A stretch of DNA of 37,829 nucleotides from a virus. Taxonomy: Duplodnaviria > Heunggongvirae > Uroviricota > Caudoviricetes. The DNA lies in IMG/VR virus record IMGVR_UViG_3300010383_000113, positions 1-37,829 of that record; one strand, written 5' to 3'. The notes beneath the pieces are model-generated. The model had not been told where the DNA came from. It did no database searches and saw only the letters and a program-made list of their open reading frames with translations. A program made the translations under genes and the position numbers. Positions 1,404 to 37,234 of this stretch are shown here, piece by piece (within the stretch, counting starts at the first letter, position 1; each line of letters starts with the position of its first letter).

Positions 1404-1431
1404 GGAGCAGGGAAGTCGCCCTCCCTGCTCC
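1404..1431. repeat. Hairpin of two inverted copies of the dispersed motif (possible terminator)
   Basis: GGAGCAGGGA-N8-TCCCTGCTCC, perfect 10-bp stem just downstream of ORF 1451-3790. Confidence 0.7.
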
Positions 1432-1450
1432 AAGCCTTGCCTCGCCTCTC

Positions 1451-3790
1451 TTAGTCCACGTCGGCGTTACAGACCTGGCCGAGGATACGGCTGTTGGTCT
1501 TCAGGAGTTCCACCGCTTCTTTTGACCGGAAGACCGCACCCATATGCACATTGAGGGCGTATCCATCGACGTCGTCGTTCCACTCTGACACGTTGCCGGT
1601 CCCGTTCTTGCTTCGCTGCCAGTTGTGGCACATGTTCAACTTCATTTCGTTGGAGAAAAGTTGGGCCTCATCCTGGATGCGTGCCCAGAGTTTCTCGCGA
1701 GGGGCCTTCGAAGTCTTGATGTCGGCGAACAGGATGCGGACTAGCTGATTGTTGATGTTGAGTTTCACCGTGTTGTTGCTGAACGAGACGTATCGGCCGT
1801 GCGGACTGGAGGCGTGGAACATGGAGACCCCACGCTTGGACTTGGCCTCTCCGGGGTCGCCGCCACTTCCGCCCGATCCTCCAGTGCTATTGGTGAACCT
1901 CTGCGGCAGGTCCACTTTGGTATTCAGCCGGTAGAGATCGTCGCCGTGCCTGAAGTGGAGATGAATATGAGGCAGGGTATTCTTCCGGACCCCCTCCTTA
2001 AGCCAGGTGTCCTCGTCCACCTTGACGTACTCGCCATCGTTGGTCTGAATGTGGTAATCGCCGACGGACAAGTACCACTGGCCCGACTTGCCGAGGCTGA
2101 TCAGTGTGTTGTCGCCATCTCCAACAGGCTCGAAAGACCAAGTCGCATCAACGACTTCTCCAGTATCGGCATGAGTCAACACGCCGCGAACTTCCCCGCC
2201 CGGACCGATCTTGACGATGGATTTGTTCGTCTTCGGGTCGACCAGCATGAGCCGATTGATCTTCGTCTTGCTGAAGATCGGGAGTTCCGCCATGCCGTCG
2301 AGACGTCGCGGCCACATGAGGTCGATCTCATTACGGATGTCGGTGATACCTTCGGCGTTCTCAGGGTCGTCGGCGGCCGTCTGGAAGATGTCGGTGACGC
2401 ACCTCATCAGATGGTTGCGATTCGAGACGCAGAACATCTCGTCGACATTCCCGAGGTACTGTCTCAGGCGTGCGTGGTCGTTCTGGTCTACGGCCTTGCC
2501 GTCGACGGAGAGGATCTCGGTGATACGCACTCGGATCCTGGCGAACGGATTCCGCCGGAAGATGAAGTTGTTCTTGCTGTTGGTTGCGTTGATGATCTCT
2601 CGAAGCTGAGGAAAGTTGTCGAAGTCGGTGAAAGTTTCGGAGTTGTCGCTGAGGCCCACGTTGAACGCCATGGCGAACTTCTCAAGCATCTTCCCGGCGA
2701 ATACCGGCTGCTCGTTCAGGCGTGAGAATCGACGGCTTTGCTGGTAGTCGAAGGAGACGAAGGTGTTGAATTCCGGCCTGGAAGCCACCATCAAGGCGTG
2801 CCCCGGCGAGTCGCCGTTAGTGCGGATTAGGGCCCTGCGGTTGGCGTTGAGGCCGACTTCGCCTCGCACAAGACCGTCATAGAGAGTCAGTTCAACCTCG
2901 GCGTTGAGGCGGATCTCTTCCGCGTCGTAGTTAATCTTGCAGTCGTTGGCCGGGATAGTCCACTTGTGACGGAATAGAATTTCATCGAAGTGATCGCACG
3001 ACATCATCTCCGAAGGGCGTACCGACGAGATTTTCATCCGGTCGTCGTAAACATCTCCCTCTTCGAGGACCAGGCTGTAGTGGTAGAAGACCTTGAAGTC
3101 TCGGCCGATCAGATTAGGGCAGAAATCTTTGAGCAGCATGAGCGTTTGCACGTTCAAGAAGCATTCGCTCTTGCCCAGCTTCACGTCGAAACGCGAGAGG
3201 TAGGCCACGTTGATCTTTCCCCACAACGACCCGAGTCGCTTCCGGATGTTGTCGATCAGATCGTCGTCGGCCACGGAGATTCGAGGCGTGCCGTCGTCGA
3301 GATGCGATTCGATGAGGTGAGTTGAGGCTCCGTCTTTACTGAGGATGAGGTGGTGATAGCGGCTTTGATTCTTGACGATCAGAAGAGGGGAGAGCATGCC
3401 TCCGCAGCCATTTGCTCCCTTACCTCCGGTTGAAGTGTTGGGCTGTAGGGCGGACACGATGCTCATTTGAGAAGGGAACGGATCGCCGTCGTGAGCATTG
3501 ACGACGTAAGCCTGGCCCCCGATCTTCATCGTGAACGACCACAGGTTTTTTGCGTTGTTGGCCTTGGCATTCTCGGCGTGCTCTCGGAAATAGATCGCCT
3601 TCGCGAGGTTGGGCGACGAGGAATACTGGGTCGTTAGCCCCTCTTGCGAACTGGTGATGCGGCGAGTCTCGTCGGTTAGATCGACGTGAGTGAGGACGGG
3701 CTTCTTCTGGATGTTGCTCTCGCGAGGAAGGCCGTGCAAATTGGCGGTGGACTTGCGGGAAGAGGGCTTGTTCTTGGTCTTCGTCGGCAT
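1451..3790 (-). CDS. Large protein with a putative N-terminal GHKL (HATPase_c-like) ATPase domain
   Basis: 779 aa; REHAENAKA (N-box), NAHDGDP (G1-like), GGKGANGCGG (G2-like) in the expected order. Confidence 0.55.
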   Translation of the reverse strand: MPTKTKNKPSSRKSTANLHGLPRESNIQKKPVLTHVDLTDETRRITSSQEGLTTQYSSSPNLAKAIYFREHAENAKANNAKNLWSFTMKIGGQAYVVNAHDGDPFPSQMSIVSALQPNTSTGGKGANGCGGMLSPLLIVKNQSRYHHLILSKDGASTHLIESHLDDGTPRISVADDDLIDNIRKRLGSLWGKINVAYLSRFDVKLGKSECFLNVQTLMLLKDFCPNLIGRDFKVFYHYSLVLEEGDVYDDRMKISSVRPSEMMSCDHFDEILFRHKWTIPANDCKINYDAEEIRLNAEVELTLYDGLVRGEVGLNANRRALIRTNGDSPGHALMVASRPEFNTFVSFDYQQSRRFSRLNEQPVFAGKMLEKFAMAFNVGLSDNSETFTDFDNFPQLREIINATNSKNNFIFRRNPFARIRVRITEILSVDGKAVDQNDHARLRQYLGNVDEMFCVSNRNHLMRCVTDIFQTAADDPENAEGITDIRNEIDLMWPRRLDGMAELPIFSKTKINRLMLVDPKTNKSIVKIGPGGEVRGVLTHADTGEVVDATWSFEPVGDGDNTLISLGKSGQWYLSVGDYHIQTNDGEYVKVDEDTWLKEGVRKNTLPHIHLHFRHGDDLYRLNTKVDLPQRFTNSTGGSGGSGGDPGEAKSKRGVSMFHASSPHGRYVSFSNNTVKLNINNQLVRILFADIKTSKAPREKLWARIQDEAQLFSNEMKLNMCHNWQRSKNGTGNVSEWNDDVDGYALNVHMGAVFRSKEAVELLKTNSRILGQVCNADVD

Positions 3791-3859
3791 GGAATTCTTC
3801 CTTTGGTAGAGGTCTCAAAACGATCTTGGTCTGTGGATGGTGAAAGTCTGGATCGGGAG

Positions 3860-4177
3860 TCAGACCTGCGGGAATTCGAGCCCCGGTTGGTCGACAAGCC
3901 CCAACTGCTCCATGACGGCCTCGCACTCGTCGAGGCTGACGATGAGGCTCTGGAGGGTGTGGCCGTTGGCGTCCTCCAAGCCCGCCCCCTCGCCACGCCC
4001 GAACAACTCTCTATATAGGACGGGGTTGACCTCGCCCCGCCGGATCCCGTCGGCCAACCACCGCTGCAACGGGACCTCCTCGACGATCCGACGCAGCAGG
4101 GCCGCCGCGTCCTCGCCGAGCTTGAACTGGACCATCTTGGTCTTGGTCGCACGACGCCGGAGTTCATTCAGGGTCAT
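3860..4177 (-). CDS. Hypothetical protein
   Basis: 105 aa ORF, overlaps upstream gene. Confidence 0.7.
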   Translation of the reverse strand: MTLNELRRRATKTKMVQFKLGEDAAALLRRIVEEVPLQRWLADGIRRGEVNPVLYRELFGRGEGAGLEDANGHTLQSLIVSLDECEAVMEQLGLVDQPGLEFPQV

Positions 4178-4364
4178 GATGCCTCACCATATCAAATAGG
4201 ACGATGGGCCAAAGGAAGATGCAGTAGAGGGCCGACTTGATCGAGGACACTTCGTCGTCTTCCCCGGCCTCGTCGAAGGATCGCCAGCATGACGCCAGCC
4301 CGGCGGCCGAGAGGATGACGCCGAAGAGGTACGACGAGATGAGGACGCGAAGGATCAGCATCAT
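4164..4364 (-). CDS. Small two-TM membrane protein
   Basis: MMLILRVLISSYLFGVIL...CIFLWPIVL; GGAGG RBS; similar pattern to neighbour 4361-4552. Confidence 0.7.
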   Translation of the reverse strand: MMLILRVLISSYLFGVILSAAGLASCWRSFDEAGEDDEVSSIKSALYCIFLWPIVLFDMVRHHDPE

Positions 4365-4552
4365 CGCATCACCTCCGAGCGAACGTACTGGAACACCCAG
4401 AGGGGCCACATCAGGCTGGCGTACAGCGTGAAGAAGCGATAGCCGGGGATCGGCCAGGCCGGGCGATTGAGGAGGAGCAGGGAGGCGAAGATCACACAGC
4501 CTGCCGCGTAAACCCCTAGGACGACCAGCAGCCCCAAAAGAATGGTGCTCAT
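4361..4552 (-). CDS. Small two-TM membrane protein
   Basis: 63 aa, hydrophobic, ASLMWPLWV motif; ATGA coupling. Confidence 0.7.
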   Translation of the reverse strand: MSTILLGLLVVLGVYAAGCVIFASLLLLNRPAWPIPGYRFFTLYASLMWPLWVFQYVRSEVMR

Positions 4553-4788: not shown

Positions 4789-5383
4789 GCCACAGGCCCC
4801 TTTCGTGCAGTTTGGCGTCGGCCTCGGCCTCGGCGAAGGCCTTCATGAGGTCGGGGTTGAACTTGAACTTCCTGTAATAGCGGCCGTAGCCCTCGCGGAT
4901 GAGGTGTTCGTTGACGAGCCGGCCATCGAGGTAGACGTAGGCGATCAGCCGAGAGAAGCCGTCCAGCCGGTTCTTCTCGAACTCCAGGTGGACGTCCCGG
5001 CCTTCGAGCATGGCCTTGGTGTGGGCCGACGCCTCTTTGCCGAAGGGCTGGGGGCCACGATGGGTATCGACCGTCTCGGGAGTGTCGACGCCGATGAGCC
5101 TCACTTTGTATAGGACGTCGCCTCGGGCGACCTCGATGGTGTCGCCGTCGACGACCCGGATGACACGGACTTTGTCGAAGGCGGAAGGGCAGTCGCAGGA
5201 TTTGCAACACTGGCACGGGCCGGGCTTGGCACAGCAATCGTCGCCCGCGTAAGAGAGGAGTAGCAGGGAGATCAGGGCACTAAACACGATAAGGCCTCCT
5301 AGGTGGACTTGGGATGTTCCAGCTAGGAGACCTACACCGAAGGGCTTGACCCCCTCCCTGCTACGCACGCGAAGCGTGCTCAC
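4730..5383 (-). CDS. Thermonuclease (SNase) family protein with TM/signal anchor and Cys-rich linker
   Basis: VIRVVDGDTI, VRLIGVDTPET, FGKEAS, RLIAYVYLDGRLVNEHLIREGYG, AEADAKLHERGLW. Confidence 0.92.
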   Translation of the reverse strand: MSTLRVRSREGVKPFGVGLLAGTSQVHLGGLIVFSALISLLLLSYAGDDCCAKPGPCQCCKSCDCPSAFDKVRVIRVVDGDTIEVARGDVLYKVRLIGVDTPETVDTHRGPQPFGKEASAHTKAMLEGRDVHLEFEKNRLDGFSRLIAYVYLDGRLVNEHLIREGYGRYYRKFKFNPDLMKAFAEAEADAKLHERGLWHDDGQRDAGTPLQPVPREE

Positions 5384-7491: not shown

Positions 7492-7651
7492 TTTGCCCTC
7501 CCTGCTCCCCGGCGGAGCCGGTTGTGAAATCCTGTCCGCACGTCAGACATCGCCAGTGATCGTAACAGCCGTACTGACCACGGTCCAGGATGCGGGTTCG
7601 TCGGTCTTCGCCGCATCCGTTGCAGTAGATCACCCCATTTTCGATCGGCAT
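7484..7651 (-). CDS. Small zinc-ribbon protein
   Basis: MPIENGVIYCNGC...WRCLTCG; GAGGAGG RBS. Confidence 0.7.
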   Translation of the reverse strand: MPIENGVIYCNGCGEDRRTRILDRGQYGCYDHWRCLTCGQDFTTGSAGEQGGQNA

Positions 7652-7845: not shown

Positions 7846-8034
7846 TTACATCCTCTTTAGCCGTTCGACGTCGGCCCTCAAGAACTTCCCGGCCTGAACC
7901 CCGCCCTCGTAGGCTTGGCGATAGGGCTCGTTATAGAACTGGGGAGTTGGTGGCCAGTTATTTCGGCCGTCACGCACCCCCATGTCGAATGCTCGATGGA
8001 GATCTTTGTTGATCCCAGGGTCAATCGACCACAT
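7846..8034 (-). CDS. Hypothetical protein
   Basis: 62 aa; RBS supplied by the motif copy at 8043. Confidence 0.65.
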   Translation of the reverse strand: MWSIDPGINKDLHRAFDMGVRDGRNNWPPTPQFYNEPYRQAYEGGVQAGKFLRADVERLKRM

Positions 8035-8419
8035 TCTGCCCTCCCTGCTCCTCCGCCGCAGGCGGCTCGAACTTGGACTTCAGCCAGAGGTATTGCTGGT
8101 ACTGCCACTTCCGATTGTATTCTTCCTCGGCGGATTTCTCCGCTTCGTGTCGTTGACGTTTAACGACCTCGTCGCGAAGCTCATCATCGGTTCGCGTGTA
8201 GTCGGCCAACTTCTCGACATTCAGTCGCTCATCCTTCTCGCCCCAGTGATAGAACTGGACCTGGAAGTCGTCGAGACCTTCGGCGGCCTTGTGCTCCTCG
8301 ATGATCCGGACGATAAGGTTGGCGGAGGTCGGGGTCGGCAGATCTTCGGCGATCGGGTGTTCGTAATTCTTGATCACACGGTCGATCTTGTAGCACTCGA
8401 CCAGTTCGTCGAGGGTCAT
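8021..8419 (-). CDS. Hypothetical protein
   Basis: 132 aa; TAAGGAG RBS; ATGA overlap with the isrB stop. Confidence 0.75.
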   Translation of the reverse strand: MTLDELVECYKIDRVIKNYEHPIAEDLPTPTSANLIVRIIEEHKAAEGLDDFQVQFYHWGEKDERLNVEKLADYTRTDDELRDEVVKRQRHEAEKSAEEEYNRKWQYQQYLWLKSKFEPPAAEEQGGQNVVD

Positions 8420-9450
8420 GTTTTGATCTCCTTATGTAGGGTGAAGGTGGTTCTAAAGGAAAGGTAGGATAAAAACCTCAAGTCTTCTGGCCTGGCGTGT
8501 TGTGAAATCCGTTTTCCTGATACGAGATCGTGCAGGCTCACTCGGCCTTTCGAAGATCCGCCGACGAACGTTAGGCCGTGTTTTGGGTGTTCGACCAGAC
8601 TCCCTCGGTTGAATCCTAAACTACGTGTTCCGCCTTGTCGCCTTCGGAAGCCTCCTTTGGTTGGTTGTAATAGATGAAGTTGACGACGAGCATAATCAAA
8701 AGGTGTGGCTAACAACACTCCAATGAAATCGGGCTTGAAATGTCCGCCGACGATTGAGTTCGCCATCACCCAGGAATCGACGCAGTGGGCATGGAAGTCG
8801 TTGGACAGCTTGGCATTGATCTTCGTCAGGCCGTGTAGAGATCGTAGTTCGGCCGTCCTCTCACCTTCGACGAGCGTCAGGGCGGCGAACTTCTCCACTT
8901 CGGCATAGAGCCACTGCTTGCCGACCTGGAGAGGGCTGAAGGATTTGTTCCAGCGATATTTTCCTTTCTTCGTCTCGGCTTTAACGTCCTCGACGACGAC
9001 GTGCTTGATAGGATACATTTTGCAAAGCCAGTTCAGGACCCGCAACTTCCATTGCCAGCGAGCTTTGGTGGAAGGCGGGATTCGTCCTTCGGGGGCCGCT
9101 CGATTGAGTCTGCACTTGCGATAAGGAGTCTTTCGAGATCGCCTAGTTCTTCGCATGTTACGTCGAACTTCCATCTTCTCCTCGACGCCCGTACGGGCAT
9201 CGGCCTGGATGTTGAGGAAGGTCTTGTGACGTGACTTGACGGTGAATCCTTCCTTCTTCGATCCGGGATCGACGCCGACGACGACTGCCTGAGTGACGCG
9301 GGCCGAGGGCTCGACGTTGAGCCGGACACAGAACACGCCGTGCTTCCAGAACGGCGTCGCCTTGTCGGACTTGATCCAGGACGCAGCCCGGTTGGGTGTC
9401 GTGGGCATGAGCGGTTGTTGGTTTTGGTCAACGACGGGAACGCTGAGCAT
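8416..9450 (-). CDS. isrB: IsrB, OMEGA RNA-guided nickase (PLMP/RRXRR, split RuvC, no HNH)
   Basis: 344 aa; QPLMPT, RuvC-I VGVDPGSK, Arg-rich bridge helix RRNMRRTRRSRK, RuvC-II VVVEDVK, RuvC-III HAHCVDS; no HNH insert. Confidence 0.9.
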   Translation of the reverse strand: MLSVPVVDQNQQPLMPTTPNRAASWIKSDKATPFWKHGVFCVRLNVEPSARVTQAVVVGVDPGSKKEGFTVKSRHKTFLNIQADARTGVEEKMEVRRNMRRTRRSRKTPYRKCRLNRAAPEGRIPPSTKARWQWKLRVLNWLCKMYPIKHVVVEDVKAETKKGKYRWNKSFSPLQVGKQWLYAEVEKFAALTLVEGERTAELRSLHGLTKINAKLSNDFHAHCVDSWVMANSIVGGHFKPDFIGVLLATPFDYARRQLHLLQPTKGGFRRRQGGTRSLGFNRGSLVEHPKHGLTFVGGSSKGRVSLHDLVSGKRISQHARPEDLRFLSYLSFRTTFTLHKEIKT

Positions 9451-9661
9451 GGGCGGTAAGCCCTCCTGTGTACATCCCTTCGACGCTGGCGACCCGAGAG
9501 GAAGAAGACTAGGGAGGCATCCTCTACGTCGTTCGGCCTACCACGGCCAGGTCGCTAACTGGCGGTTCGAAACCGCCTCGTCTAGTCGCGTTTTAACTTG
9601 CTTCGGACGGCGGTCGGGCTTCCGTCTTGACAAGCCCCTTCCTTCAGGATGGGGTTATGAC
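8416..9661 (-). mobile_element. IS200/IS605-superfamily isrB element (omegaRNA + isrB), no tnpA
   Basis: End-like GTCATAACCCCATCCTGAAGGAAGGGGCTTG at the omegaRNA 5' end; more AT-rich than flanks; 3' boundary uncertain. Confidence 0.7.
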
Positions 9662-9681
9662 TCCGTTCGCGGTAGCAGGGA
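9451..9681 (-). ncRNA. omegaRNA (HEARO-like): scaffold about 9661-9451 plus 5' guide about 9681-9662
   Basis: Structured leader directly upstream of isrB with typical blocks ACCCC..CCTGAAGG..GGGGCTTG, GACTAG, GGATGCCTCCCTAGTC..CTCT, GTCGAAGGGA; internal hairpin GGCGGTTTCGAACCGCC. Confidence 0.8.
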
Positions 9682-9892
9682 GGGTCAACTCTTCAAGATG
9701 CTGCATCGCAGTGAAGTCGTCGGCTTCGACAACGGCCTTGGCCAATCTTCCAAGTCGTTCCGCCGGGAAGCCCTTCTTCTCCAGAAGCCAGATCAAATCA
9801 CCCATCACCATGTGGCGGCATACCTGGGGATAAGGGAAGTTGAGTAGGCCCTTGATGAGTTCGAAGATGTCGTCTTGGGTGATCGGTGTCAT
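9644..9892 (-). CDS. Hypothetical protein; last codons lie inside the IS end
   Basis: 82 aa; RBS supplied by the motif copy at 9899. Confidence 0.7.
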   Translation of the reverse strand: MTPITQDDIFELIKGLLNFPYPQVCRHMVMGDLIWLLEKKGFPAERLGRLAKAVVEADDFTAMQHLEELTLPATANGVITPS

Positions 9893-10159: not shown

Positions 10160-10182
10160 GCGACTTCGTCGGTAGCAGGGAG

Positions 10183-10452
10183 TCAGCACAAAAGGCCCGT
10201 AGTCACCACGAGGTCGAACAGGCGGCCTTCGAGGGGAAGGCTGACCTCCTCATGGCGGAAGCTGCCGTCTTCGTTGTAGAAGAAATCACTGATCGCGTCG
10301 GCGACCTCGTCGTCGGTCTGCATCGAGTTGATGAAATGGTAGTTCCAGGAGTGGAGACGGTCGGCCGTGGCCTTGTCGACGACCAACTCGTAGAAACGGA
10401 TCGATTCGGGGACTTCCTGGAAGATGACGAAGACCTTGAGCGTTTCGGTCAT
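10183..10452 (-). CDS. Hypothetical acidic protein
   Basis: MTETLKVFVIF...; AGGAG RBS. Confidence 0.7.
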   Translation of the reverse strand: MTETLKVFVIFQEVPESIRFYELVVDKATADRLHSWNYHFINSMQTDDEVADAISDFFYNEDGSFRHEEVSLPLEGRLFDLVVTTGLLC

Positions 10453-10460: not shown

Positions 10461-11003
10461 CTAGAGAATCCTGGGGTTTCGCAGGTTGGTTCCACACCAT
10501 GGGCAAAATGAGATTTCGACGGCCGACTGGCCGCCGTCATGGACGATCAGGCCGTAGGTCCCGCTGTTGGGCCAGTAGACCACCAATTTGTCAGGACAGT
10601 CGTATGGACTCTCGTGCTGGTCGCAGGTGTGCTGGAGGTTGGACCTCATGCGGTCGCAGCAGATGTGCTCGCTGGGATGCGGCCGTGGTTCGTCGACTGC
10701 CTCTTTCTTGACGCCCGAACGAACAACCTCTATGACATCTGCCACACGGCGGAAGTCCGGATATTTGTTCTGATTGTACTTCAAGAATCGTTCGACATTC
10801 TTGCCGATCGGCGAGTGAGGGCTGGCTACCATGACGACCTGAACATTTTCGTCGTCTGCGGTTTTCCAGACGGGGACGGACTCCCATCTCTTATCAGCCA
10901 GAATCTCCGAGTAGAACGCCAGGCGATAGTCGTCGACGTTATCGGCCAACACCCCCTGCTCCTCTTCTGAGGATTGAGAATTATCGACGTAGTTGGAAGC
11001 CAT
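10461..11003 (-). CDS. Hypothetical protein with Cys-rich C-terminal domain (DUF6980-like)
   Basis: Likely start MASNYVD coupled to the parB stop; CCDRM..CDQH..DCPD..YGLIVHDGG..ISFCPWCG. Confidence 0.7.
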   Translation of the reverse strand: MASNYVDNSQSSEEEQGVLADNVDDYRLAFYSEILADKRWESVPVWKTADDENVQVVMVASPHSPIGKNVERFLKYNQNKYPDFRRVADVIEVVRSGVKKEAVDEPRPHPSEHICCDRMRSNLQHTCDQHESPYDCPDKLVVYWPNSGTYGLIVHDGGQSAVEISFCPWCGTNLRNPRIL

Positions 11004-11914
11004 CAGGCCATCGCCTCCTTGAGCGAATCCATGTCCATATTGACGAACAGGAGGCCGTACTCGTTCCAGAGTCGTTCGACCTCGTCGTCGTTCACGGTGC
11101 CGTCGAGGTAGTCGAGCAGCAACGCGGCCATGTTCGACGCAACCTCTCCCTCCTGGGACATCTTCTTGAGGAAGTCCTTGAGTTGCTTGATGCCCCGCCT
11201 GACGGAGGCCCCACGCTCGCGACGTTCCTCGCGGACCGAATCGGCGGTGACGGGGCCGCCCTCCTCGCGGAGGCTCTCGAAGACCTCGACCTGGGCCTCC
11301 TCGTCGCCCACCTTGGTGAGTTCGAGGGCCGTGCTGACGGCGATCTCGCCGGAGTCGACGCTCTGTCGGATCGGGTCGGGCAGGCTGAGGAGGTCGAGGT
11401 GCCGGTAGCACCAGGAGACGTTCTGGTTGAACTGGTGGGCGATCTTGGCGATCGAGAAGCCCATGTCCTCGTGGAGCCGCCGGATGGCGTGGGCGATCTG
11501 GACGGGCTTGGGCTGGAGCCGGTGGAGGTTCTCGGCGACGTTGCAGAGGGCCGCCTCCGCCCGGTTCATCTTGGTCGTGACGCACTTGATCTTGAAGTCG
11601 GGGCAGGTGCCCGACTCGATCAGCCAGATGGCCGCCTTGAGCCGCCGATTGCCGATGGCCACCTGGTAGCGACCCTTGTCGACGTTGCGGACCAGGATCG
11701 GCTGGAGCTGGCCGACCGACCCCTGGTTCTCGTCGTCGGCCTCCGACCGGGGCCGCATGCTCATGGCGAGGGCGATCAGCTCGTCGTCGACCTCCAGCTT
11801 CTCGCCGAATCGGGAGAGGTTCTCCTCGTCGTCGAACAGGATGGCCCTGGGGTCGACCAGGAACATGTTGTGACGCTCGACCTCGTAATCATTCCACGTC
11901 GTGGGGCTTGCCAT
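11003..11914 (-). CDS. ParB/RepB/Spo0J family protein
   Basis: GQLQPILVR, QVAIGNRRLKAA (GxRR CTP-binding motif), AENLHR, then HTH-like SIAKIAHQFNQNVSWCYRHLDLL. Confidence 0.88.
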   Translation of the reverse strand: MASPTTWNDYEVERHNMFLVDPRAILFDDEENLSRFGEKLEVDDELIALAMSMRPRSEADDENQGSVGQLQPILVRNVDKGRYQVAIGNRRLKAAIWLIESGTCPDFKIKCVTTKMNRAEAALCNVAENLHRLQPKPVQIAHAIRRLHEDMGFSIAKIAHQFNQNVSWCYRHLDLLSLPDPIRQSVDSGEIAVSTALELTKVGDEEAQVEVFESLREEGGPVTADSVREERRERGASVRRGIKQLKDFLKKMSQEGEVASNMAALLLDYLDGTVNDDEVERLWNEYGLLFVNMDMDSLKEAMA

Positions 11915-13662: not shown

Positions 13663-14052
13663 TCAGAGGCCTTTCCAGAAGTAGAGTGCGACGACGGCCA
13701 GGGCGAAGGTGACGATGGAGGAAGGTTCGGGCACGGCCGTTTGCGGGCCTGGCGGCCCGCCGGGAGTAGCAGGGAGGGGCAATCCCACGATCGGCGTCGT
13801 GATCTGCGGGCAACTCGGCAGTTCGCCCACCTCCTGCTCCTCTTCTCGCGAAGCGAGGATCATGGCGGCGACGTTGGGATGATAGGACGTGAACCTATCG
13901 GGGTTGATCTCGAATCGCTGTTCGAGCATCTGCCAGATCGGCGTGTCGGGCAGGTCGCCCTCGTGGAGTTTCTGATAGACCTGGCTGCGGAAGAGGCCGG
14001 CGGCGTGCTCGACTTCCCATTTGGAGGGCGGAAGCGTGAAGGTGAAACCCAA
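13663..14052 (-). CDS. PEP-CTERM sorting-domain protein
   Basis: C-terminus AVPEPSSIVTFALAVVALYFWKGL after a Pro/Gly linker. Confidence 0.8.
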   Translation of the reverse strand: MGFTFTLPPSKWEVEHAAGLFRSQVYQKLHEGDLPDTPIWQMLEQRFEINPDRFTSYHPNVAAMILASREEEQEVGELPSCPQITTPIVGLPLPATPGGPPGPQTAVPEPSSIVTFALAVVALYFWKGL

Positions 14053-17340: not shown

Positions 17341-17543
17341 GGGAACCTCCGGAGAGTAGCAGGGGGTTAAACGAAGACGGCCTCGGCGACACGTCCGCCC
17401 TCCCTGCTCCTCTTCTCTTCGGCCGAGGGGGATGAGCGGGCTTTGCGGTGGTCGACGAGGCGTATCGGCTTGCAGTCGGGACTTCGGTGGTCGATCGGCG
17501 GATGGATGTAGAAGGGGTTTATCGACCCCTGTTCTCTCGGCAT

Positions 17544-17810
17544 TCAGAAGCCTCGATAGAAGATTTCATGCCAGGGATAGTCTTCGTGGCCAGGCGGGAG
17601 GATGGTTTCGACCGTCTCGTCGATCACGAGTGGTATCGGACCTCCCGTCGGCCCGTAGTTCTCCCATTTGGGGCTGCTGGCCCGCGACGCATTCGCATAG
17701 GCTGCGTCCAGGTCCACGGTCAAGGTCGACCTTAACCAGTATAGCCCACAGAGGCCCAGGGCGACCACGACATATCCGGCCAGGCTTTTCAAGGTCATCG
17801 GGACTTTCAT
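17544..17810 (-). CDS. Membrane-anchored hypothetical protein
   Basis: MKVPMTLKSLAGYVVVALGLCGLYW. Confidence 0.6.
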   Translation of the reverse strand: MKVPMTLKSLAGYVVVALGLCGLYWLRSTLTVDLDAAYANASRASSPKWENYGPTGGPIPLVIDETVETILPPGHEDYPWHEIFYRGF

Positions 17811-17842
17811 CGTCGGCCCCCTGATTAAGCGTGAGTGCAAGA

Positions 17843-17871
17843 AAGCTATCACTGCGGGATTCCTCCGTCAA
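17843..17871 (-). promoter_or_regulatory. Sigma70-type promoter
   Basis: Minus strand TTGACG-N17-TAGCTT with TG upstream of the -10. Confidence 0.55.
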
Positions 17872-17903
17872 GTCAAAAGGCCGGCACGCGACAAAGATGA
17901 GCG

Positions 17904-18326
17904 TCAGCGACTTTCGGCGAACGTCCTGGTCGAGCGACGGCGGTGCAGGTAGACGGGCTGGTAGACGGCCTGGCGGCACTTGTCGAGCAGGTCGATCGTG
18001 TGGTCGACGCCGTTGTTGCTGATCGTATAGGCGATCTTCTGGGCGGTCAGGCGGTCGACGATGTAGGGCCGCACGTCGAGCTGGTTCATCGTCAGGGCGA
18101 GCATCTTGTGGCCGTTGCTGACCGTCTCGCCGAGGTGGCGTCCGGCGGGAACGACGCCCGTCAGGGAATACTTGACCAGGATGTTGACCAGGTGGAGCCG
18201 GTAGTGCTTCAGGGCGGCGTTCAGGCGGATGGCGTTCTGGCCGAAGACCTGCTCGGCGTTCGGCGACTTGGGGCAGCGGAAGTTCACGGCGAACGTCCCG
18301 TCGTCCTTGACCACGTAATCTCGCAT
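17904..18326 (-). CDS. Hypothetical protein
   Basis: 140 aa ORF. Confidence 0.7.
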   Translation of the reverse strand: MRDYVVKDDGTFAVNFRCPKSPNAEQVFGQNAIRLNAALKHYRLHLVNILVKYSLTGVVPAGRHLGETVSNGHKMLALTMNQLDVRPYIVDRLTAQKIAYTISNNGVDHTIDLLDKCRQAVYQPVYLHRRRSTRTFAESR

Positions 18327-18327
18327 C

Positions 18328-18726
18328 TCAGTCCCCCTTTCGGGCCAGTTGGCGGGTGGTTTCCACTACGGTATACATAGGACGGGTCCACACTAGATGG
18401 GCGGCGGCCGTCATCAGGGCTAGGTGGGCCAGGATCAAGCCGGCCCACAGGTAGTCCATCCGTCGACATCGACGGCGATACTCGTCCTGGACGCTCTGCA
18501 TGGCCTCCAGGTGCCGCCTCTCCCTCTCGTCGGCCTTCCGGAGGACTTCGTCCAGGCCGGGCAACGCCCGCTCGTAGTGCTCGATCATGTCCTCGAAGGG
18601 CTCCTCGATGCTCGGGCCGAACGACAGCGGAGAGAGCGTGTCGTGAAGGTCATGGAGGATCGCTGGAAGGTACTTCGGGTCGCGGGGGTTGTCGAATCGT
18701 TCTTCAGCCACCTGTTCGGTCATCAT
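18328..18726 (-). CDS. Hypothetical protein with C-terminal TM helix
   Basis: 132 aa; LWAGLILAHLALMTAAAHLVW. Confidence 0.7.
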   Translation of the reverse strand: MMTEQVAEERFDNPRDPKYLPAILHDLHDTLSPLSFGPSIEEPFEDMIEHYERALPGLDEVLRKADERERRHLEAMQSVQDEYRRRCRRMDYLWAGLILAHLALMTAAAHLVWTRPMYTVVETTRQLARKGD

Positions 18727-18970
18727 GTGTCGCTCCGCTCCACTTTAGTGGACGATGCTCGTTGATCTTGGGCATGGACTGGTGCGGGATGGAGACTACC
18801 CGGCCGCAACGCTCGCAGACGCCGACCAGCACGTCCGGGACCGTGACGTCCCACCCCGACGGGGTGTAGTCGCGACGCTCCATTCGGACGGGGACTGCGG
18901 CCTTGCAGTTCTCGCAGACGGCCGCCGAACGATCGCCTTCTTTGTAAGGCCTCTTGATGCTCTCGCTCAT
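18704..18970 (-). CDS. YgiT/MqsA-type zinc-finger protein lacking an HTH
   Basis: CENC...VTVPDVLVGVCERCG. Confidence 0.65.
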   Translation of the reverse strand: MSESIKRPYKEGDRSAAVCENCKAAVPVRMERRDYTPSGWDVTVPDVLVGVCERCGRVVSIPHQSMPKINEHRPLKWSGATHDDRTGG

Positions 18971-18978
18971 GATGGTAG

Positions 18979-19581
18979 TTAGACGGCGGCTTTCGCTCGC
19001 TTGCCGCCCTTGGCCTTGAGGAATCCGTGCTGGACGAGCACCTCTCGGAGAATCGCTTTGATGTTGACCTCCTGGCCTTCCAGGAGTGAGATGCGTTCTT
19101 GCACCAGGTTCTCCGCGTCCATCAGGGCAACATCGGCCTCGGTGCGGCGATCCTTGGGGATTCGATTCAGGACCGCCTCCTCGTCGTCGTGGGGGATGAC
19201 GATAGCGTTGCGGTCGTATCCCTCGGCGGACACCAGGTAGTCCCTGACAACCTCCAGGTGGCCGACCTTGACCCCCTCTCGATCGACGACGTCCTGGCGT
19301 GCGGCCTTCTGGCCACAGTCCAACATGGGCCAGCCGCAGACGTTCTCTTTGATCAGCGAGAGCAGGTTATCCTCCCAGACGTGGGTCCAGGGGAGAAACC
19401 TGTAGCACATGTCGAGGAAGTCTTGTCTGCTGGGCGGTTTGTCGAAATGGAACGTGTGGCTTCGATAGTGCGAAGGTTCGTGTTCTTCGGGATATTCACA
19501 AACCTCGATGGGCTTGACACCGGCCTCGGCGGCCTCCGGATAGTAGTGGACGGTCAGAGTGAACATCTCTCGTCGGCCCAT
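18979..19581 (-). CDS. Hypothetical protein
   Basis: 200 aa; TAAGGAG RBS. Confidence 0.75.
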   Translation of the reverse strand: MGRREMFTLTVHYYPEAAEAGVKPIEVCEYPEEHEPSHYRSHTFHFDKPPSRQDFLDMCYRFLPWTHVWEDNLLSLIKENVCGWPMLDCGQKAARQDVVDREGVKVGHLEVVRDYLVSAEGYDRNAIVIPHDDEEAVLNRIPKDRRTEADVALMDAENLVQERISLLEGQEVNIKAILREVLVQHGFLKAKGGKRAKAAV

Positions 19582-19614
19582 TCGTCGGTCTCCTTAATCA
19601 GCCCTTGCTTCGTT

Positions 19615-19851
19615 TCAGTCGATGAGCCCCACGTCTTTCAAGACGCTTCGATAGACGGCGACGAACGAGTCGATCGTGAGTTGACCCGCCAACTCATCGT
19701 CCTGCGATACCATGAGCCTCATGACCTCTTCGGCCACGAGGGCGTCCTTGACCCCGTCGCCGACCAACCAGCGGGCCTGCGGCGTCATCTTGCGGCGATA
19801 GGCGTCGGCGGCGATCTTCGTCCACTGCTTCAGTTGCTTGTCGCTGACCAT
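19615..19851 (-). CDS. Hypothetical protein
   Basis: MVSDKQLKQW...; GGAGG RBS. Confidence 0.7.
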   Translation of the reverse strand: MVSDKQLKQWTKIAADAYRRKMTPQARWLVGDGVKDALVAEEVMRLMVSQDDELAGQLTIDSFVAVYRSVLKDVGLID

Positions 19852-19852
19852 C

Positions 19853-20206
19853 TCAGTCCTCCCGCTCGTCGTCTGCGTCGTCTGGAACGAAGTCCGCCCA
19901 TTCCCCAGCCCCGTTCCAATAAGGGCTCTTGTCGTCGTCGAGGAAGATCTCGTCCAACAAGGACCATACGTCGTTCGGGCCGAGAGCTTCGACGACGCCG
20001 TTGGTGAGTTCGGCCCGAAGTTTGTCGTGTAGATCCCAGAGATCATGAAACTGCTCGACCGACGCGAACCCCGGCGGCGGGCCATACTCCTGCAAGTCTT
20101 CCTCGACTCCTTCGGGGATGTCGATCATGCGTTCCCCGAGCCGCCACGGGATCTTCGGGAAGTCTTTGATTGGGACGACGAGGGCCCGGATGTCGTCAAG
20201 AGTCAT
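19853..20206 (-). CDS. Acidic hypothetical protein
   Basis: 117 aa ORF. Confidence 0.7.
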   Translation of the reverse strand: MTLDDIRALVVPIKDFPKIPWRLGERMIDIPEGVEEDLQEYGPPPGFASVEQFHDLWDLHDKLRAELTNGVVEALGPNDVWSLLDEIFLDDDKSPYWNGAGEWADFVPDDADDERED

Positions 20207-20216
20207 CGCCCACCTC

Positions 20217-20759
20217 TTAGTAAGTCTGGAGAAGGTCGTTGATGAGCCGTTCCATCTCGGCCTTGGCGGATTCCAGAGCGGCCTTCGAGTAGTCCGACTC
20301 GGTGAGGCACTCGGCGGCCTGATAGATCTCGATGGTCTTCTGGAGGTCGTCGTCCTTGGCCAGTTCTCGGAGCTTCTCGTGGATCAGGCCTACGACGGCA
20401 TTGCCATAGGTCAGGGCCGCCTGGACAGAGATGGCTCGTTGAGGTTCCAGTCCCTCCCAAAGGCCATCGTCCGTCTCTTCGTAGTCTCTCATTTGGTCGA
20501 GGAGTTCGGCCGATTCCTGGAGGCTGTAGTCTCTGTCGTTATGGTTTGCATGATGATAGTCATCGAAGCCCGACAGGTCGTTCATTGGATCGACGGGGAC
20601 TTCACCATAGCTTGTGATGTGCTCGATGATCTCGTCGAGATGATGCTCGATGGCCGTGGTCGCGTCGTCATGGGCGTCGTTGCGATAGTTCGACTTCGTC
20701 ACTTTGTTCGTCTCCTTAATTCGGGCTAGGAAGTTGGCTTCGCAGTTACACCAAGCCAT
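20217..20759 (-). CDS. Acidic protein, possible Ocr-like DNA mimic
   Basis: Very D/E-rich; YEETDDGLWEG..AISVQAALTY loosely parallels T7 Ocr EFEDSGL..RILQARIY (by eye). Confidence 0.4.
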   Translation of the reverse strand: MAWCNCEANFLARIKETNKVTKSNYRNDAHDDATTAIEHHLDEIIEHITSYGEVPVDPMNDLSGFDDYHHANHNDRDYSLQESAELLDQMRDYEETDDGLWEGLEPQRAISVQAALTYGNAVVGLIHEKLRELAKDDDLQKTIEIYQAAECLTESDYSKAALESAKAEMERLINDLLQTY

Positions 20760-21033
20760 CGTCGACCTCATCGAAAGAGCACGTCGCCAGGTGGTCGATC
20801 CGATCTTCGAGCCACTTTACGACGTCCGGCAAAGTAAAGGGATCGGCGTTGAGTTCGTCGAGGAACTGTCGGTAGGCCGGCGGCTTGAGGCACGCGAGGT
20901 GGGCCCAGGCCGAGGGCGAAAGGTGGACGATGCCGTGTGGCTTCACCAAGATCCTGAAGATCTCGTAGGTGCCGTCGTCGTGCTGCTCATACTCGATCTC
21001 GAAGCCAGTGGGGCTCAGCCAGGTCTTTCTCAT
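20746..21033 (-). CDS. Hypothetical protein
   Basis: 95 aa ORF. Confidence 0.65.
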   Translation of the reverse strand: MRKTWLSPTGFEIEYEQHDDGTYEIFRILVKPHGIVHLSPSAWAHLACLKPPAYRQFLDELNADPFTLPDVVKWLEDRIDHLATCSFDEVDDGLV

Positions 21034-21042
21034 GGGGGCCCC

Positions 21043-21465
21043 TCAGTAGCAGACTCCGTTGCCGCGACAGTATTCCGACCACTTCTCAAGCACTTCGTGC
21101 CAGGCGGCTTCTTCGTCGCCGTCGGCATCCCGCAGGAACTTCGCCCAGTCTTCGTCGGACGTCTCCACCCTCTCGCAGTCGTCGACGGAGACGTATCTCG
21201 TGTGGACGTAGATTACGTCGTGATTTTCGACGATGCCGCCCAGGATGTCCTCGAAGAGTTTCTGATCCTCGTCCTCATCCTCGGGCGACAGGGTCCACAT
21301 CGGCCCCAGATAGTGCATCTCGAATGACGGGGCGATCTCGCAGCAGTTGACGGTCTTGTTGCAATCGAAGATGTAGAGGTCGAAGATCTGACCGGCTTTC
21401 TTGCGGATCTCCTCGACCCAATACTCGGTGACGTCTCGCTTGTAGAGGCGGAAGTCAGGTTTCAT
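21043..21465 (-). CDS. Acidic hypothetical protein
   Basis: 140 aa; GAGG RBS. Confidence 0.75.
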   Translation of the reverse strand: MKPDFRLYKRDVTEYWVEEIRKKAGQIFDLYIFDCNKTVNCCEIAPSFEMHYLGPMWTLSPEDEDEDQKLFEDILGGIVENHDVIYVHTRYVSVDDCERVETSDEDWAKFLRDADGDEEAAWHEVLEKWSEYCRGNGVCY

Positions 21466-21691
21466 GCGAGTTCCTCGCTTGTCTGAGACGTGCCAGAATC
21501 GCCCGACTCTTCCCGACGAAGGTGCGGCGACGTGTCCTGCGACGCTCCAGCCCTTCCCTGGTGATGTTCTCGATGGCTTCTGCGTCGTCTTCGTCGTTCA
21601 GGAGGCCTTCAGCCTTGTTGGCTTCCTCGAAGGCGTCCTCCCAGTTAGGGTCGTTGTCCCAGTCCCAGTAGTTCTTTTCGTAGTGGCCCAT
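21455..21691 (-). CDS. Hypothetical protein
   Basis: MGHYEKNYW...; acidic N-half, basic C-half. Confidence 0.65.
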   Translation of the reverse strand: MGHYEKNYWDWDNDPNWEDAFEEANKAEGLLNDEDDAEAIENITREGLERRRTRRRTFVGKSRAILARLRQARNSHET

Positions 21692-21698
21692 GAGCCCC

Positions 21699-22052
21699 TC
21701 AGTCGACTTCGAGATTGATCCCGAAGACTTCGTAGATCTTCTGTCGAATCGCCCCGTCGGCTTGTTTGATCGTGCTTTGGAGTTCATCCAGCCCTTTTAG
21801 AGATGCCGTCTCATAAGCGATCTCGGCTGCTCTCTGCTGGATGTTGGTCTCAAACCTTCGGTAGATATCCTCGATCGTGTCCTGAAAAGGGACTTCGACT
21901 CCGTTGACGATCAGGGAAACCTCGAAATGGGCTCCTGGTACGTGCTTCTCGATAATCTCTGGGTGCTTAGCCTTGGCGGCGACTAACGCCGCAAGAGCAA
22001 ATCGACCGGCGGGCTTGTCTCGAACTTCCCTAAGCGAGATGTATTCAGGCAT
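21699..22052 (-). CDS. Hypothetical protein
   Basis: 117 aa; GGAGG RBS. Confidence 0.7.
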   Translation of the reverse strand: MPEYISLREVRDKPAGRFALAALVAAKAKHPEIIEKHVPGAHFEVSLIVNGVEVPFQDTIEDIYRRFETNIQQRAAEIAYETASLKGLDELQSTIKQADGAIRQKIYEVFGINLEVD

Positions 22053-22079
22053 AAGGGGCCTCCAAAGAGTAGCAGGGGG

Positions 22080-23307: not shown

Positions 23308-23338
23308 GCACTCACTCCGTTCGTATGGAGCACGGAGG

Positions 23339-27915: not shown

Positions 27916-27959
27916 GGCTAAGTCCTTGGTCGGCTTCGCCGACGGTAGCAGAGAGGACC

Positions 27960-28862: not shown

Positions 28863-28958
28863 CGCTTATACCTCGATTGTTGGCTGGATGGTGCATCCTC
28901 GCAGCCCTCCTCGGTCGGCTTTGCCGACGGCAGCCGGGAGGGCCTTAAGGGCCGTTGA

Positions 28959-30194: not shown

Positions 30195-30251
30195 GGTCGC
30201 CTTTCGGTCGGCTTCGCCGACGTAGCAGGGAGGGCTGTCTACAAACGCCGC

Positions 30252-30894: not shown

Positions 30895-30963
30895 ACGATC
30901 AATCTCCAGCCAGTAGGATGATGCCCCCTGCCCTCCCTGCTACTCTCCACGCCGCAGGCGTGC

Positions 30964-32473: not shown

Positions 32474-32474
32474 T

Positions 32475-32738: not shown

Positions 32739-32963
32739 TCACTCCTTCGGAGTGGGAGCAGGGAGGGTGATCTCGATGAAGACGGGCCAATCGTAGGTGA
32801 TGACTTCGTCTTGGTACATGGAGAGGAAGGCGTTACCGATGGCTTCTTCTACGGTGCGGCCGAAGTGTCCGTCCCTGTAAGGAGGATCGTCGACCACGGC
32901 CCTCGCGTTGTATCCTCCCGGACACTCCTTGACCGTGATCTTGACGTTAGATGTGATCGCCAT
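32739..32963 (-). CDS. Small protein, HicB-like fold possible
   Basis: ITVKECPGGYNARA...FGRTVEEAIGNA. Confidence 0.6.
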   Translation of the reverse strand: MAITSNVKITVKECPGGYNARAVVDDPPYRDGHFGRTVEEAIGNAFLSMYQDEVITYDWPVFIEITLPAPTPKE

Positions 32964-34774: not shown

Positions 34775-34808
34775 GGTCGTCTCCTAATGGGGAGGAGCAG
34801 GGAGGGGA

Positions 34809-35288
34809 TCACTGGTAAATCGGCTTGATGATCAGGTCTCCGGTCGTCTTGGCGGTCTTGGTGGGTTGTCGTTCGGTGATGATGAAGGCCATGAGGTGAT
34901 TGGGGAATGGCGTATGTCTGTAGGTGTCCGGATAGTGCGGGGGGACGTATCCCCCGGGGTTTCCGATATAGCCGGCCGGCTTGACGTCGAATGTCCGGTC
35001 TTCGCCGCGAATCGGGACGACCAGCGGCTTGACGTTCATGGTGCGGAGGGCTTCAGGCGAGGCGAACAGGTATCCTCGGCTGTAGTCGGGATCGCCCTTA
35101 GGCCCCTTCCAGACGACCGAGGCCCGAGCGTCCATCGGCGTCCCGGACGAATCGAAACCCGGACCAAGCTCGAAGACCGCCATTACGACGACGTCGTCAG
35201 GCAGGCCGTAAGTCTGGTTGTACCACACGATCGAATCTCCAATGGGGAGTAGCAGGGAGGGCCGCCCCTGAATATAGGACAGCCCCAC
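34809..35288 (-). CDS. Hypothetical protein (true start probably a GTG near 35228)
   Basis: Open frame; GGAG RBS near 35237. Confidence 0.55.
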   Translation of the reverse strand: MGLSYIQGRPSLLLPIGDSIVWYNQTYGLPDDVVVMAVFELGPGFDSSGTPMDARASVVWKGPKGDPDYSRGYLFASPEALRTMNVKPLVVPIRGEDRTFDVKPAGYIGNPGGYVPPHYPDTYRHTPFPNHLMAFIITERQPTKTAKTTGDLIIKPIYQ

Positions 35289-35304
35289 CCCCTGCTCCGG
35301 TTTT

Positions 35305-35571
35305 TCAGGCTGCTTTGGCCCTGCGGACGATGGTCAGGGCTTCCCTTTCCCTTCGGTTCAGCGTCCAGTCGATCGGTCGGCCCGACACCATGACCCTGAT
35401 GTCCGCGTCCATCCCCATCCTCTTGAGGGCCCGGCGGAGCCGCTTGACGTCCGCATGGTTCCGGTCGTGGTTCAGGGAGGAGTATCCGAGGGTTTCCAAA
35501 TTCCATTGGTCGGATGTCGTCGTGCCGTACAGTCGTCCGCTTTCGTCTCGGGAAAGGCTTATCGTGATCAT
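35305..35571 (-). CDS. Hypothetical protein
   Basis: 88 aa ORF. Confidence 0.65.
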   Translation of the reverse strand: MITISLSRDESGRLYGTTTSDQWNLETLGYSSLNHDRNHADVKRLRRALKRMGMDADIRVMVSGRPIDWTLNRREREALTIVRRAKAA

Positions 35572-35590
35572 CGTCCGGCCCTCTCGTCGA

Positions 35591-35773
35591 TCAGGTGAAT
35601 TTCAAACGTCCCGACGCGGTCGCGGTCTTGAGCCGGGATCCCACCAGGCGGATCGGCTTCGCGTCCGGGTGGTCGCATGGGGGACGCGGGACGTCGAGCG
35701 AAGTGCCGAACACGGACGCCATCCTGACCAGCCGCCTTTGCACGTCTTGTCGGACCTTGTCGCGATAGTGCAT
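35591..35773 (-). CDS. Small basic protein
   Basis: MHYRDKVRQD...; AGGAG RBS. Confidence 0.55.
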   Translation of the reverse strand: MHYRDKVRQDVQRRLVRMASVFGTSLDVPRPPCDHPDAKPIRLVGSRLKTATASGRLKFT

Positions 35774-35804
35774 GTTGGAGACTCCTAAAGAGGTTCCGAG
35801 GGGA

Positions 35805-35999
35805 TCAGGCGAAGACCACGCCCACCCCGTCGCCTTCCCGCCAACGGATCCGCTCCACCATCTCGGACGCATCCGACGCATAGTGGAACGGCGTGGCGTT
35901 GTAGCTGCGATTCGTCCAGCGATAGAACCGGACGCCCGACCGCCTAATCTGGCGGAAATAGACCTTGCGACCGTTCCTCAAGAGCTTGACCAGGTACAT
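35805..35999 (-). CDS. Small basic protein
   Basis: 64 aa ORF. Confidence 0.6.
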   Translation of the reverse strand: MYLVKLLRNGRKVYFRQIRRSGVRFYRWTNRSYNATPFHYASDASEMVERIRWREGDGVGVVFA

Positions 36000-36072
36000 G
36001 AGAGACCCTTAAACGAAATCAGCCGACGTCCCTTTCGAGAAGCCGGCCGCACCGCGTCGAATTGGCGAAACC

Positions 36073-36315
36073 CTATCCCGCCCGCTTGCCCTTGCCCTCC
36101 CGATAGTCGCGTTCCATCTCGGCCAGCTCGGCTTCCGTGGCGAGCCCCTTCCGCACGACGGTCAGGACGACGCGACACACGCCGCTATTGTTCTGGAACG
36201 GATTGAGCGGCCCCTTGACGTGGTCGATCCGGATGACATGCCCCCTATGGTTGAAGTGTCTCCCCCTGACTGCATTCTCACGGCCGACGAGGTCGATTTG
36301 CATGGTGGTACGCAT
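36073..36315 (-). CDS. Hypothetical protein
   Basis: MRTTMQIDL... Confidence 0.6.
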   Translation of the reverse strand: MRTTMQIDLVGRENAVRGRHFNHRGHVIRIDHVKGPLNPFQNNSGVCRVVLTVVRKGLATEAELAEMERDYREGKGKRAG

Positions 36316-36343
36316 CTCCGACGGTTTGCCCTCCCTGCTACTC

Positions 36344-36574
36344 TCACAACGCCCAGGACGGATGATCGGCCGCATCTTCGACGGTTCGGCATCGGGTCGA
36401 CTTATGAATCGGAATCTTACGGCGGGTGAAACGCTCCCAGGCATAAACTTGATCATCGTCGTGTCCACACGGTTGTCCGACCCTGACGATCCGGCCGGAC
36501 GCCACCCATTGGCCAAAGGCCCGATAGACCAGCTCCACTATCTGCCCGATCTCGGCCTCACCTACCGTCATCAC
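36344..36574 (-). CDS. Hypothetical protein
   Basis: MTVGEAEIGQIVEL... Confidence 0.55.
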   Translation of the reverse strand: MMTVGEAEIGQIVELVYRAFGQWVASGRIVRVGQPCGHDDDQVYAWERFTRRKIPIHKSTRCRTVEDAADHPSWAL

Positions 36575-36614
36575 GGACTTTCCCTTTCGCAAATTGAGAA
36601 GAGTAGCAGGGAGG

Positions 36615-36878
36615 TCAGGGGAGATCGGGGACCGCATCTCGGTTGCCGGTCAGGACGCCGTATCGCGTCCCTAGGCTGGCGTAGACGAGATCCCCGGGCT
36701 TGTCGCCAACCATCGGCTCGTATCCTCCCCGGCGTCGCCACGATGCGTAGCTCTGCATGGCGTTGATGAAACCCTCGAAATCGGCGTCATCCCCATGCAG
36801 GCCATCCATGAGGACGGACGCCCCCTCTAAACACACTTTCGGATCCAACGTCGTAACCCCCACAAGCGGATTTCCCAA
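36615..36878 (-). CDS. Hypothetical protein
   Basis: DP..CL...Y.SWRRRGGYEP motif; bracketed by motif pair 36603/36902. Confidence 0.7.
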   Translation of the reverse strand: MGNPLVGVTTLDPKVCLEGASVLMDGLHGDDADFEGFINAMQSYASWRRRGGYEPMVGDKPGDLVYASLGTRYGVLTGNRDAVPDLP

Positions 36879-36923
36879 GGGGAGGGACGAACGCCGCCCC
36901 TCCCTGCTACCGGCGAAGCCGAC

Positions 36924-37151
36924 TCAATAGTCGGTGTCGGCCCGGACCCTTTCCCGGACGAGGTTCTCGGCCTTCTCGGGATCGGCCGAATCGTGGACGC
37001 GATGCCCCCATAGCACCATGACCAGGCCCGAATCGACGTGGTGGACGATCCCCTGGCATGATGGATACAGACCCCGGGCCAGGCACTCCGAATCCACCAA
37101 TCGGACCACGTTTCCGACGCTCAACTTCCGACCGTACGGATCCCTTTGCAT
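36924..37151 (-). CDS. Small SH3-like protein
   Basis: MQRDPYGRKLSVGNVVRL...GIV..V.VLW...AENLV. Confidence 0.7.
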   Translation of the reverse strand: MQRDPYGRKLSVGNVVRLVDSECLARGLYPSCQGIVHHVDSGLVMVLWGHRVHDSADPEKAENLVRERVRADTDY

Positions 37152-37234
37152 CCCACCAGACCTCCCACTAGACGGACCTTCCAAGTCAGATGGTAAGGCG
37201 GACGATCGCCCCTCCCTGCTACACGCCGAAGGCG

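Follow-up and report, generated by a model that had tools for sequence, protein, structure and literature searches.

Primases of the DnaG type begin primers at very short template words, 5′-CTG-3′ in Escherichia coli and 5′-(G/T)2GTC-3′ in phage T7 (PMC2978363, PMC12839067). At the classic DnaG site the third base of CTG is left uncopied and primers start with pppAG, and Okazaki fragments measure 1–2 kb in bacteria (PMC2978363) and 1–6 kb in T7 (PMC12839067). In T7, bases flanking the site on its 3′ side sharpen the choice of few sites; it is an open question how primases, faced with thousands of trinucleotides, settle on a few active sites (PMC12839067). Here we describe a 13-letter asymmetric word, CC(T/C)CCCTGCT(C/A)C, that recurs throughout the genome of a tailed virus (Caudoviricetes). 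The window, the whole 37,829-bp stretch in which the word was noticed, comprises bases 1–37,829 of the single 165,829-bp virus record IMGVR_UViG_3300010383_000113, which is the whole genome (G000). The word is real, under selection and specific to the element, the host comparison having been made with candidate hosts. Our candidate reader is the phage's own DnaG primase.

The word resembles DnaG sites in its CTG core, the pyrimidines 5′ of a lone purine, the informative 3′ flank, a spacing near Okazaki-fragment length and a genome that encodes DnaG. It differs from them in conserving 12–13 bases rather than 3–5, in being strongly selected inside genes and on both strands equally, and in being known here from sequence. 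The origin of phage G4 and ssiA of plasmid RSF1010 likewise set a C-GNA-G mini-hairpin beside a short conserved single-stranded word and form convergent opposite-strand pairs (PMC13037366), but they have one or two sites per replicon, whereas about 148 are dispersed here, with a hairpin at one site in six only and 3′ of the word. The sites are too many for a classic single-strand initiation (ssi) site, and the analogy suggests a primase-like or ssi-like way of working. The NrS-1 primase–polymerase, with its 8-nt site, shows that long, phage-specific recognition words are possible for a phage priming enzyme, although that enzyme is of archaeo-eukaryotic type and also uses a short GTG site (PMC8718748), whereas the genome here encodes DnaG, DnaB and DnaE. 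Particular to the present case are the DnaG context, a CTG/CCG dialect series, measured purifying selection and the GNA hairpin; no paper on the word or the phage family was found in the literature searched, which was covered incompletely.

A dispersed word under selection

A sequence-only reading of the window had counted, by eye, 41 exact copies of the 9-bp core CCCTGCTMC between 1404 and 37222, and the count proved exact, with 23 on the plus strand and 18 on the minus strand. Its estimate of about one copy expected by chance agrees with order-2 Markov genomes, which hold 0–5 cores per 166 kb against the 138 observed; the G+C content of about 62% that it assumed is close to that of the whole genome (62.6%) and not to that of the window (59%). 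The array is indeed window-wide, yet not limited to the window: the whole contig carries 138 exact cores and 148 profile sites (82 on the plus strand and 66 on the minus strand), of which the window's share is 46–48 profile sites. The word holds about 20 bits of information, and the distribution of profile scores is clearly bimodal. Among the near-copies that had been listed, those at 13832, 29304 and 31802 score as full sites, while those at 23327, 27945, 28930 and 31318 are degenerate.

Selection had been proposed to act on the nucleic acid and not on the protein, with a codon-aware null model as the test, and codon-preserving shuffles bear this out. Coding sequences contain 16 cores in the window where about 2.4 are expected, and 92 against about 18 genome-wide. 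Sites inside genes are split evenly between sense and antisense (49 each) and fall in all frames; several frames and both orientations had been noted for the window. The word runs through essential genes too, and seven sites lie within the tape-measure gene. The word is absent from the isrB gene (8416–9450) and from the gene of a 779-amino-acid protein (1451–3790), as had been remarked, but both gaps are within normal spacing; the longest in the window runs from 17402 to 22069. Specificity to the element rather than the host also holds up: a 12-mer of the word occurs 71 times in the 166-kb genome, where its reversed control occurs once, and in 151 Planctomycetota genomes it reaches at most about 4 per Mb, not above the reversed control, a more than 100-fold difference in density. 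A scan of IMG/VR with the exact pattern gave 61 matches, mostly single chance ones.

Related phages, which had also been named as a test, retain dialects of the word. The primase belongs to a large family of uncultured phages in which gene order is conserved; scanning metagenomes with DnaE first gave no match. Within the same and the sister clade the word reads CTTCCCTGCCCC (L069), CCCCCCGCCCC (L070) and TTCCCTGCYCC (G001 and G002); G004 has TTCCCTGCCT with CCG variants, and shorter YYCCTGCY forms occur in L071, in L075 and in the L257 clade. Common to all dialects is a pyrimidine run leading into a C(T/C)G core with a lone G and then a C. C and T are interchangeable on the 5′ side across lineages, and the dialects follow the phage tree. 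Between G001 and G002, which are 88.5% identical, 29 of 30 sites are retained and the cores have taken 3 synonymous changes where 21.5 are expected (p about 1e-6), again pointing to selection on the nucleic acid. Between G000 and G001, at about 40% protein identity, 2 of 12 sites lie at homologous places and density is similar, so that site positions turn over while spacing stays.

Spacing is under-dispersed within each strand, with coefficients of variation of 0.69 and 0.55 against 0.98 for random placement (p ≤ 0.00015), per-strand medians of 1.9 and 2.5 kb and longest gaps of 6.9 and 6.2 kb. With both strands pooled the coefficient is 0.89, much less regular, whereas it drops to 0.34 for the minus strand in the densely coding structural/core region. 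Nine control words of comparable frequency show no such regularity (0.86–1.28). Even spacing recurs in G004 on both strands and in each of G001 and G002 on a single strand. Orientation alternates between neighbours in 111 of 147 cases (73 expected), mostly because spacing is even within each strand. Eight opposite-strand pairs lie less than 70 bp apart genome-wide, and close pairs are convergent in 8 cases and divergent in 1 (p = 0.02), a weak hint of mini-origins. Two of these pairs are in the window, one with its sites 19 bp apart and a perfect hairpin (1404–1431) and one with sites 41 bp apart (35249–35298).

C-GNA-G mini-hairpins beside the word

A GNA-loop hairpin stands directly 3′ of 24 of the 148 sites on the pyrimidine strand, where about 1 is expected, and of none on the opposite strand. 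The stems vary in sequence and their pairing is always complete, and 23 of the 26 triloops at this position are C-GNA-G. Hairpins with GNA loops are DNA-specific, exceptionally stable and bind SSB poorly; examples occur at the G4 primase origin, in RSF1010 ssiA and in the promoters of phage N4 (PMC13037366). Because the mini-hairpin occurs on the pyrimidine strand only, there is strong reason to think that this strand is read while single-stranded. A reading of the hairpins as RNA tetraloops is ruled out by their three-base loops and by the GNA rule on one strand.

In the window, C-GAA-G units occupy 5352–5379 (6-bp stem), 36898–36921 (4-bp stem) and 37210–37235 (5-bp stem) on the plus strand, and 10161–10184 (4-bp stem), 30207–30234 and 32740–32767 (6-bp stems) on the minus strand. 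The plus strand also has a C-GGA-G unit with a 5-bp stem (7496–7521) and two C-GCA-G units, one at 8039–8065, whose purine strand is Shine–Dalgarno-like before the open reading frame at 7846–8034, and one after a 4-nt spacer at 30931–30962. A 4-nt spacer also separates a variant motif from its mini-hairpin at 13828–13857 (plus strand), and at 27930–27957 (minus strand) the degenerate near-copy at 27945 still bears a perfect 6-bp mini-hairpin.

A near-identical stem is shared by four motif-plus-hairpin units (27930–27957, 28915–28945, 30207–30234 and one at G000:132737), in two of which the motif has decayed; duplication appears to have distributed some units among the small accessory genes. 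Searching IMG/VR for the motif-plus-hairpin pattern returned 19 matches, two of them true relatives. In one relative (L077, G001:1–19291), 18 kb contain about 13 C-GNA-G hairpins, most of them away from the motif, and the hairpins may be a separate second signal there.

Candidate readers of the word

Priming was among the functions that the sequence-only reading had put forward, and it is the one that we favour, with a probability of about 0.5: the word would be an extended recognition site of the phage's own DnaG primase, with a CTG core whose G is not copied. The gene lies outside the window (G000:93621–94805, minus strand). Its product has the DnaG fold, with an Aquifex primase as best match, carries zinc-binding and TOPRIM domains with conserved zinc-binding and acidic residues, and appears intact; a partner helicase is encoded as well. 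The polymerase domain contains an extra Cys/His insert, CxxC-x2-H-x5-C (residues about 233–247 of P0001). By sequence match, every dialect has the core of two pyrimidines and a cryptic base expected of a DnaG site, and the per-strand medians, with a maximum gap of 6.9 kb, are compatible with Okazaki fragments. This insert is a feature of the primase family, although some marine clades (L240, L261, P0008) no longer have it.

We infer the step from word to primase, as we do the primer start and the fork directions. In this model the primase would bind the C(T/C)G core, G uncopied, on an unwound template 5′-YYYYC-C-T-G-C-T-M-C-3′, with the 3′ CTMC as extra recognition, and would copy the pyrimidine run into a G-rich primer starting with pppAG, or pppGG in CCG dialects. 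Good sites being rare, selection would maintain roughly one of them on each strand per length of an Okazaki fragment. Forks of lytic replication, probably driven by recombination, would run in both directions, and for that reason both strands would need sites. At one site in six, the C-GNA-G mini-hairpin on the 3′ side would exclude SSB and so make a stronger start or restart site. More tentatively, and to our minds possible rather than probable, a private word of 12–13 bases read by an evolved DnaG might form a two-tier grid, in which plain words set the start of each Okazaki fragment on either strand and hairpin words serve as SSB-resistant start or restart sites. Such a grid would confine priming to the phage's own DNA and make start sites predictable from sequence alone. 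The genome itself appears, through selection, to specify the chosen sites, with CTG and CCG cores and differing 3′ tails paired with divergent primases, and the dialect series is a ready set for in vitro tests of primase specificity. Should another protein read the word, it would still be a strand-specific self signal of a kind not described before, in a large family of uncultured phages whose host is probably a member of the Planctomycetota; in either case it is a simple marker for assigning contigs to that family.

Several results weigh against the primase. Few sites in relatives carry a mini-hairpin (4 of 143). Its position relative to the start site is also the reverse of that in G4 and ssiA. 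In AT-rich aquatic relatives, whose primases are of the same family and have the insert too, the core is enriched at most 1.2–1.5-fold, and no primase residues were found that track the dialects. Co-occurrence cannot single out the primase, because all core genes are linked. At the RepA iterons there is no strand switch (47 plus and 37 minus sites to the right, 35 and 29 to the left), so the primase reading must assume forks in two directions. Finally, characterised DnaG primases recognise 3–5 bases, not 12–13 (PMC2978363, PMC12839067).

The main rival, on balance unlikely, is a single-strand loading or stop signal for another replication or recombination protein of the phage: either DnaB loading resembling primosome assembly, or a Chi-like self mark that would stop the PD-(D/E)XK exonuclease and pass the DNA to RecA or an annealing protein. 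Any enzyme moving along a single strand would be served by even per-strand spacing, origin-linked polarity is not required, GNA hairpins resist 3′ exonuclease and SSB, and the genes for DnaB, RecA, the nuclease and SSB adjoin that of the primase in G000 and all relatives. However, no AddAB- or RecBCD-type helicase–nuclease or known loader was found among the families listed and the larger proteins scanned, a hairpin directly 3′ of the word would not be expected to survive Chi-type processing, and the free choice of C or T on the 5′ side is easier to reconcile with a template that is copied than with a site that is contacted. The KOPS analogy drawn earlier is not supported, there being no strand switch at the plasmid origin, and replichore polarity of the kind found for Chi, KOPS or uptake sequences is not seen. 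Duplex binding of the Noc, KorB or ParB type, also raised earlier, is quite improbable; it would make the word a site at which the orphan ParB (11003–11914, minus strand, no adjacent parA), a DndB-like or another phage protein organises, partitions or protects the genome. About 20 bits are typical of protein sites, and besides two ParB proteins the genome encodes a protein with a weak DndB-like match. Convergent neighbours also tend to lie nearer each other than divergent ones do, a bias that is significant in the window, in G002 and in G004 but not in the structural/core region. Such binding is disfavoured because spacing is regular within strands and much less so when pooled, because the GNA loop, for which a duplex binder has no use, is strand-specific, and because ParA/ParB have palindromes of their own: the word itself is asymmetric, whereas four separate parS-like palindromes flank parAB, and iterons serve RepA.

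There is a slim chance that the word marks programmed single-strand nicks of the kind found in the virion DNA of T5, phiKMV-like, tf and Rembedalsseter phages. The nick motif of the Pseudomonas phages tf and Rembedalsseter is likewise asymmetric, conserved across divergent phages and placed in and between genes, but it keeps to one strand, unevenly, in about 13 copies (about 9–13 per genome for known nick words) (PMC11780129), whereas here 82 and 66 sites occupy opposite strands and nicking all of them, including the eight close opposite pairs, would break the chromosome. Slimmer still is the case for a transcription or translation signal, whether a stoperator, an N4-like hairpin promoter or a ribosome-binding site with an antisense partner. 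The stoperators of cluster A mycobacteriophages, an analogy made from the sequence alone, are also 13-bp asymmetric words with many copies per genome, but they track the direction of transcription and are mostly intergenic (PMC9283540); the word does neither, with plain sites split 63 to 61 relative to transcription, the even sense/antisense count in all frames inside genes and the seven sites in the tape-measure gene. Hairpin sites, by comparison, are template-oriented in 16 cases against 8, sigma factors are encoded, and the geometry is like that of N4 virion RNA polymerase promoters, in which the template strand carries a C-rich start region and, 3′ of it, a hairpin with a GNA loop (PMC13037366). 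Here, however, no virion RNA polymerase was found (the 2,872-amino-acid protein is the tape measure), most sites lack a hairpin and half are antisense. Read on the purine strand, the word looks like a Shine–Dalgarno sequence, and a called start follows 10 of the 79 sense-strand copies; about ten copies double as ribosome-binding sites, in what is probably a secondary use. ParB and the sigma factor, proposed earlier for DNA pull-down, are poor first candidates because neither the stoperator nor the ParB-type reading is supported, and the primase is a better one. Least probable by far is a host signal (an uptake sequence, host Chi or REP-like repeat) copied by the phage. The purine strand of the word begins with GTAG or GGAG, resembling REP feet, and the comparison genomes are those of candidate hosts; against a host signal stand the density contrast with the 151 Planctomycetota genomes and the dialects that follow the phage tree.

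The phage-plasmid, its host and neighbouring features

The genome encodes terminase, the tape-measure protein, a split DnaE polymerase, a proofreading exonuclease, DnaB, the TOPRIM primase, SSB, RecA, the PD-(D/E)XK nuclease, sigma factors and nucleotide enzymes. It also encodes a plasmid-type RepA initiator (G000:127035–128710; L005:14038–15710) with about eight iteron-like repeats upstream, near 128.5–128.7 kb, and a parAB pair (G000:123632–125560) with its four palindromic sites at 125.4–125.6 kb; with these two systems the element is a phage-plasmid. The best matches of RepA and ParA are plasmids of Planctomycetota, and the element is probably a large phage-plasmid infecting that phylum. 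The host assignment leans on these two proteins because a scan of genome contigs turned up no genuine prophage copy and nothing beyond weak TOPRIM matches. Neither a described Planctomycetota phage-plasmid, in the literature searched, nor a close cultured phage was found; the genome yielded no tRNAs, and the surroundings of isrB gave no Rfam match. Gene calls came from a simple purpose-made caller that missed some genes, isrB among them. Genes found with the strong-motif relatives and undetected in AT-rich ones (g124, g131–133, g160 and g163–165) include no evident DNA reader; g132 is glycosyltransferase-like, g133 kinase-like and g131 annealing-protein-like by eye only.

DnaE is made by two separate genes, one for the PHP/NTPase part and one for the finger/HhH part, with the exonuclease gene between them (G000:83048–88633), and is also split in relatives L071, L075 and L177. 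A conserved protein at G000:79573–80298 (L003:4576–5298, minus strand), without a Pfam match, looks by eye only like a Rad52/Sak-type annealing protein, and is adjoined by a glycosyltransferase-like protein at 80285–81175. The weak DndB-like match is a 467-amino-acid protein (G000:115487–116890), possibly a third member of the ParB superfamily. A three-gene island at G000:119324–122210 lies on the strand opposite to its neighbours and contains motif copies; its leading gene encodes a 595-amino-acid orphan with no family or atlas match.

In the AT-rich relatives G006 and G007, other two-strand words are modestly enriched, TAAGTCCTT and ACTTACG, respectively, and are perhaps regulatory sites. 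Two soil runs gave only short, low-depth pieces of a relative and are uninformative; one low-depth soil-run contig skips 25951–26464 (512 bp, one gene), which suggests a variant without this stretch. In the window, a motif copy at 9672 lies at the very edge of the isrB (RRXRR) gene and its upstream non-coding region (8416–9685), and in L069 an RRXRR gene (from 15331) is inserted right after a motif copy (15246); together these may hint at insertion beside sites of the word.

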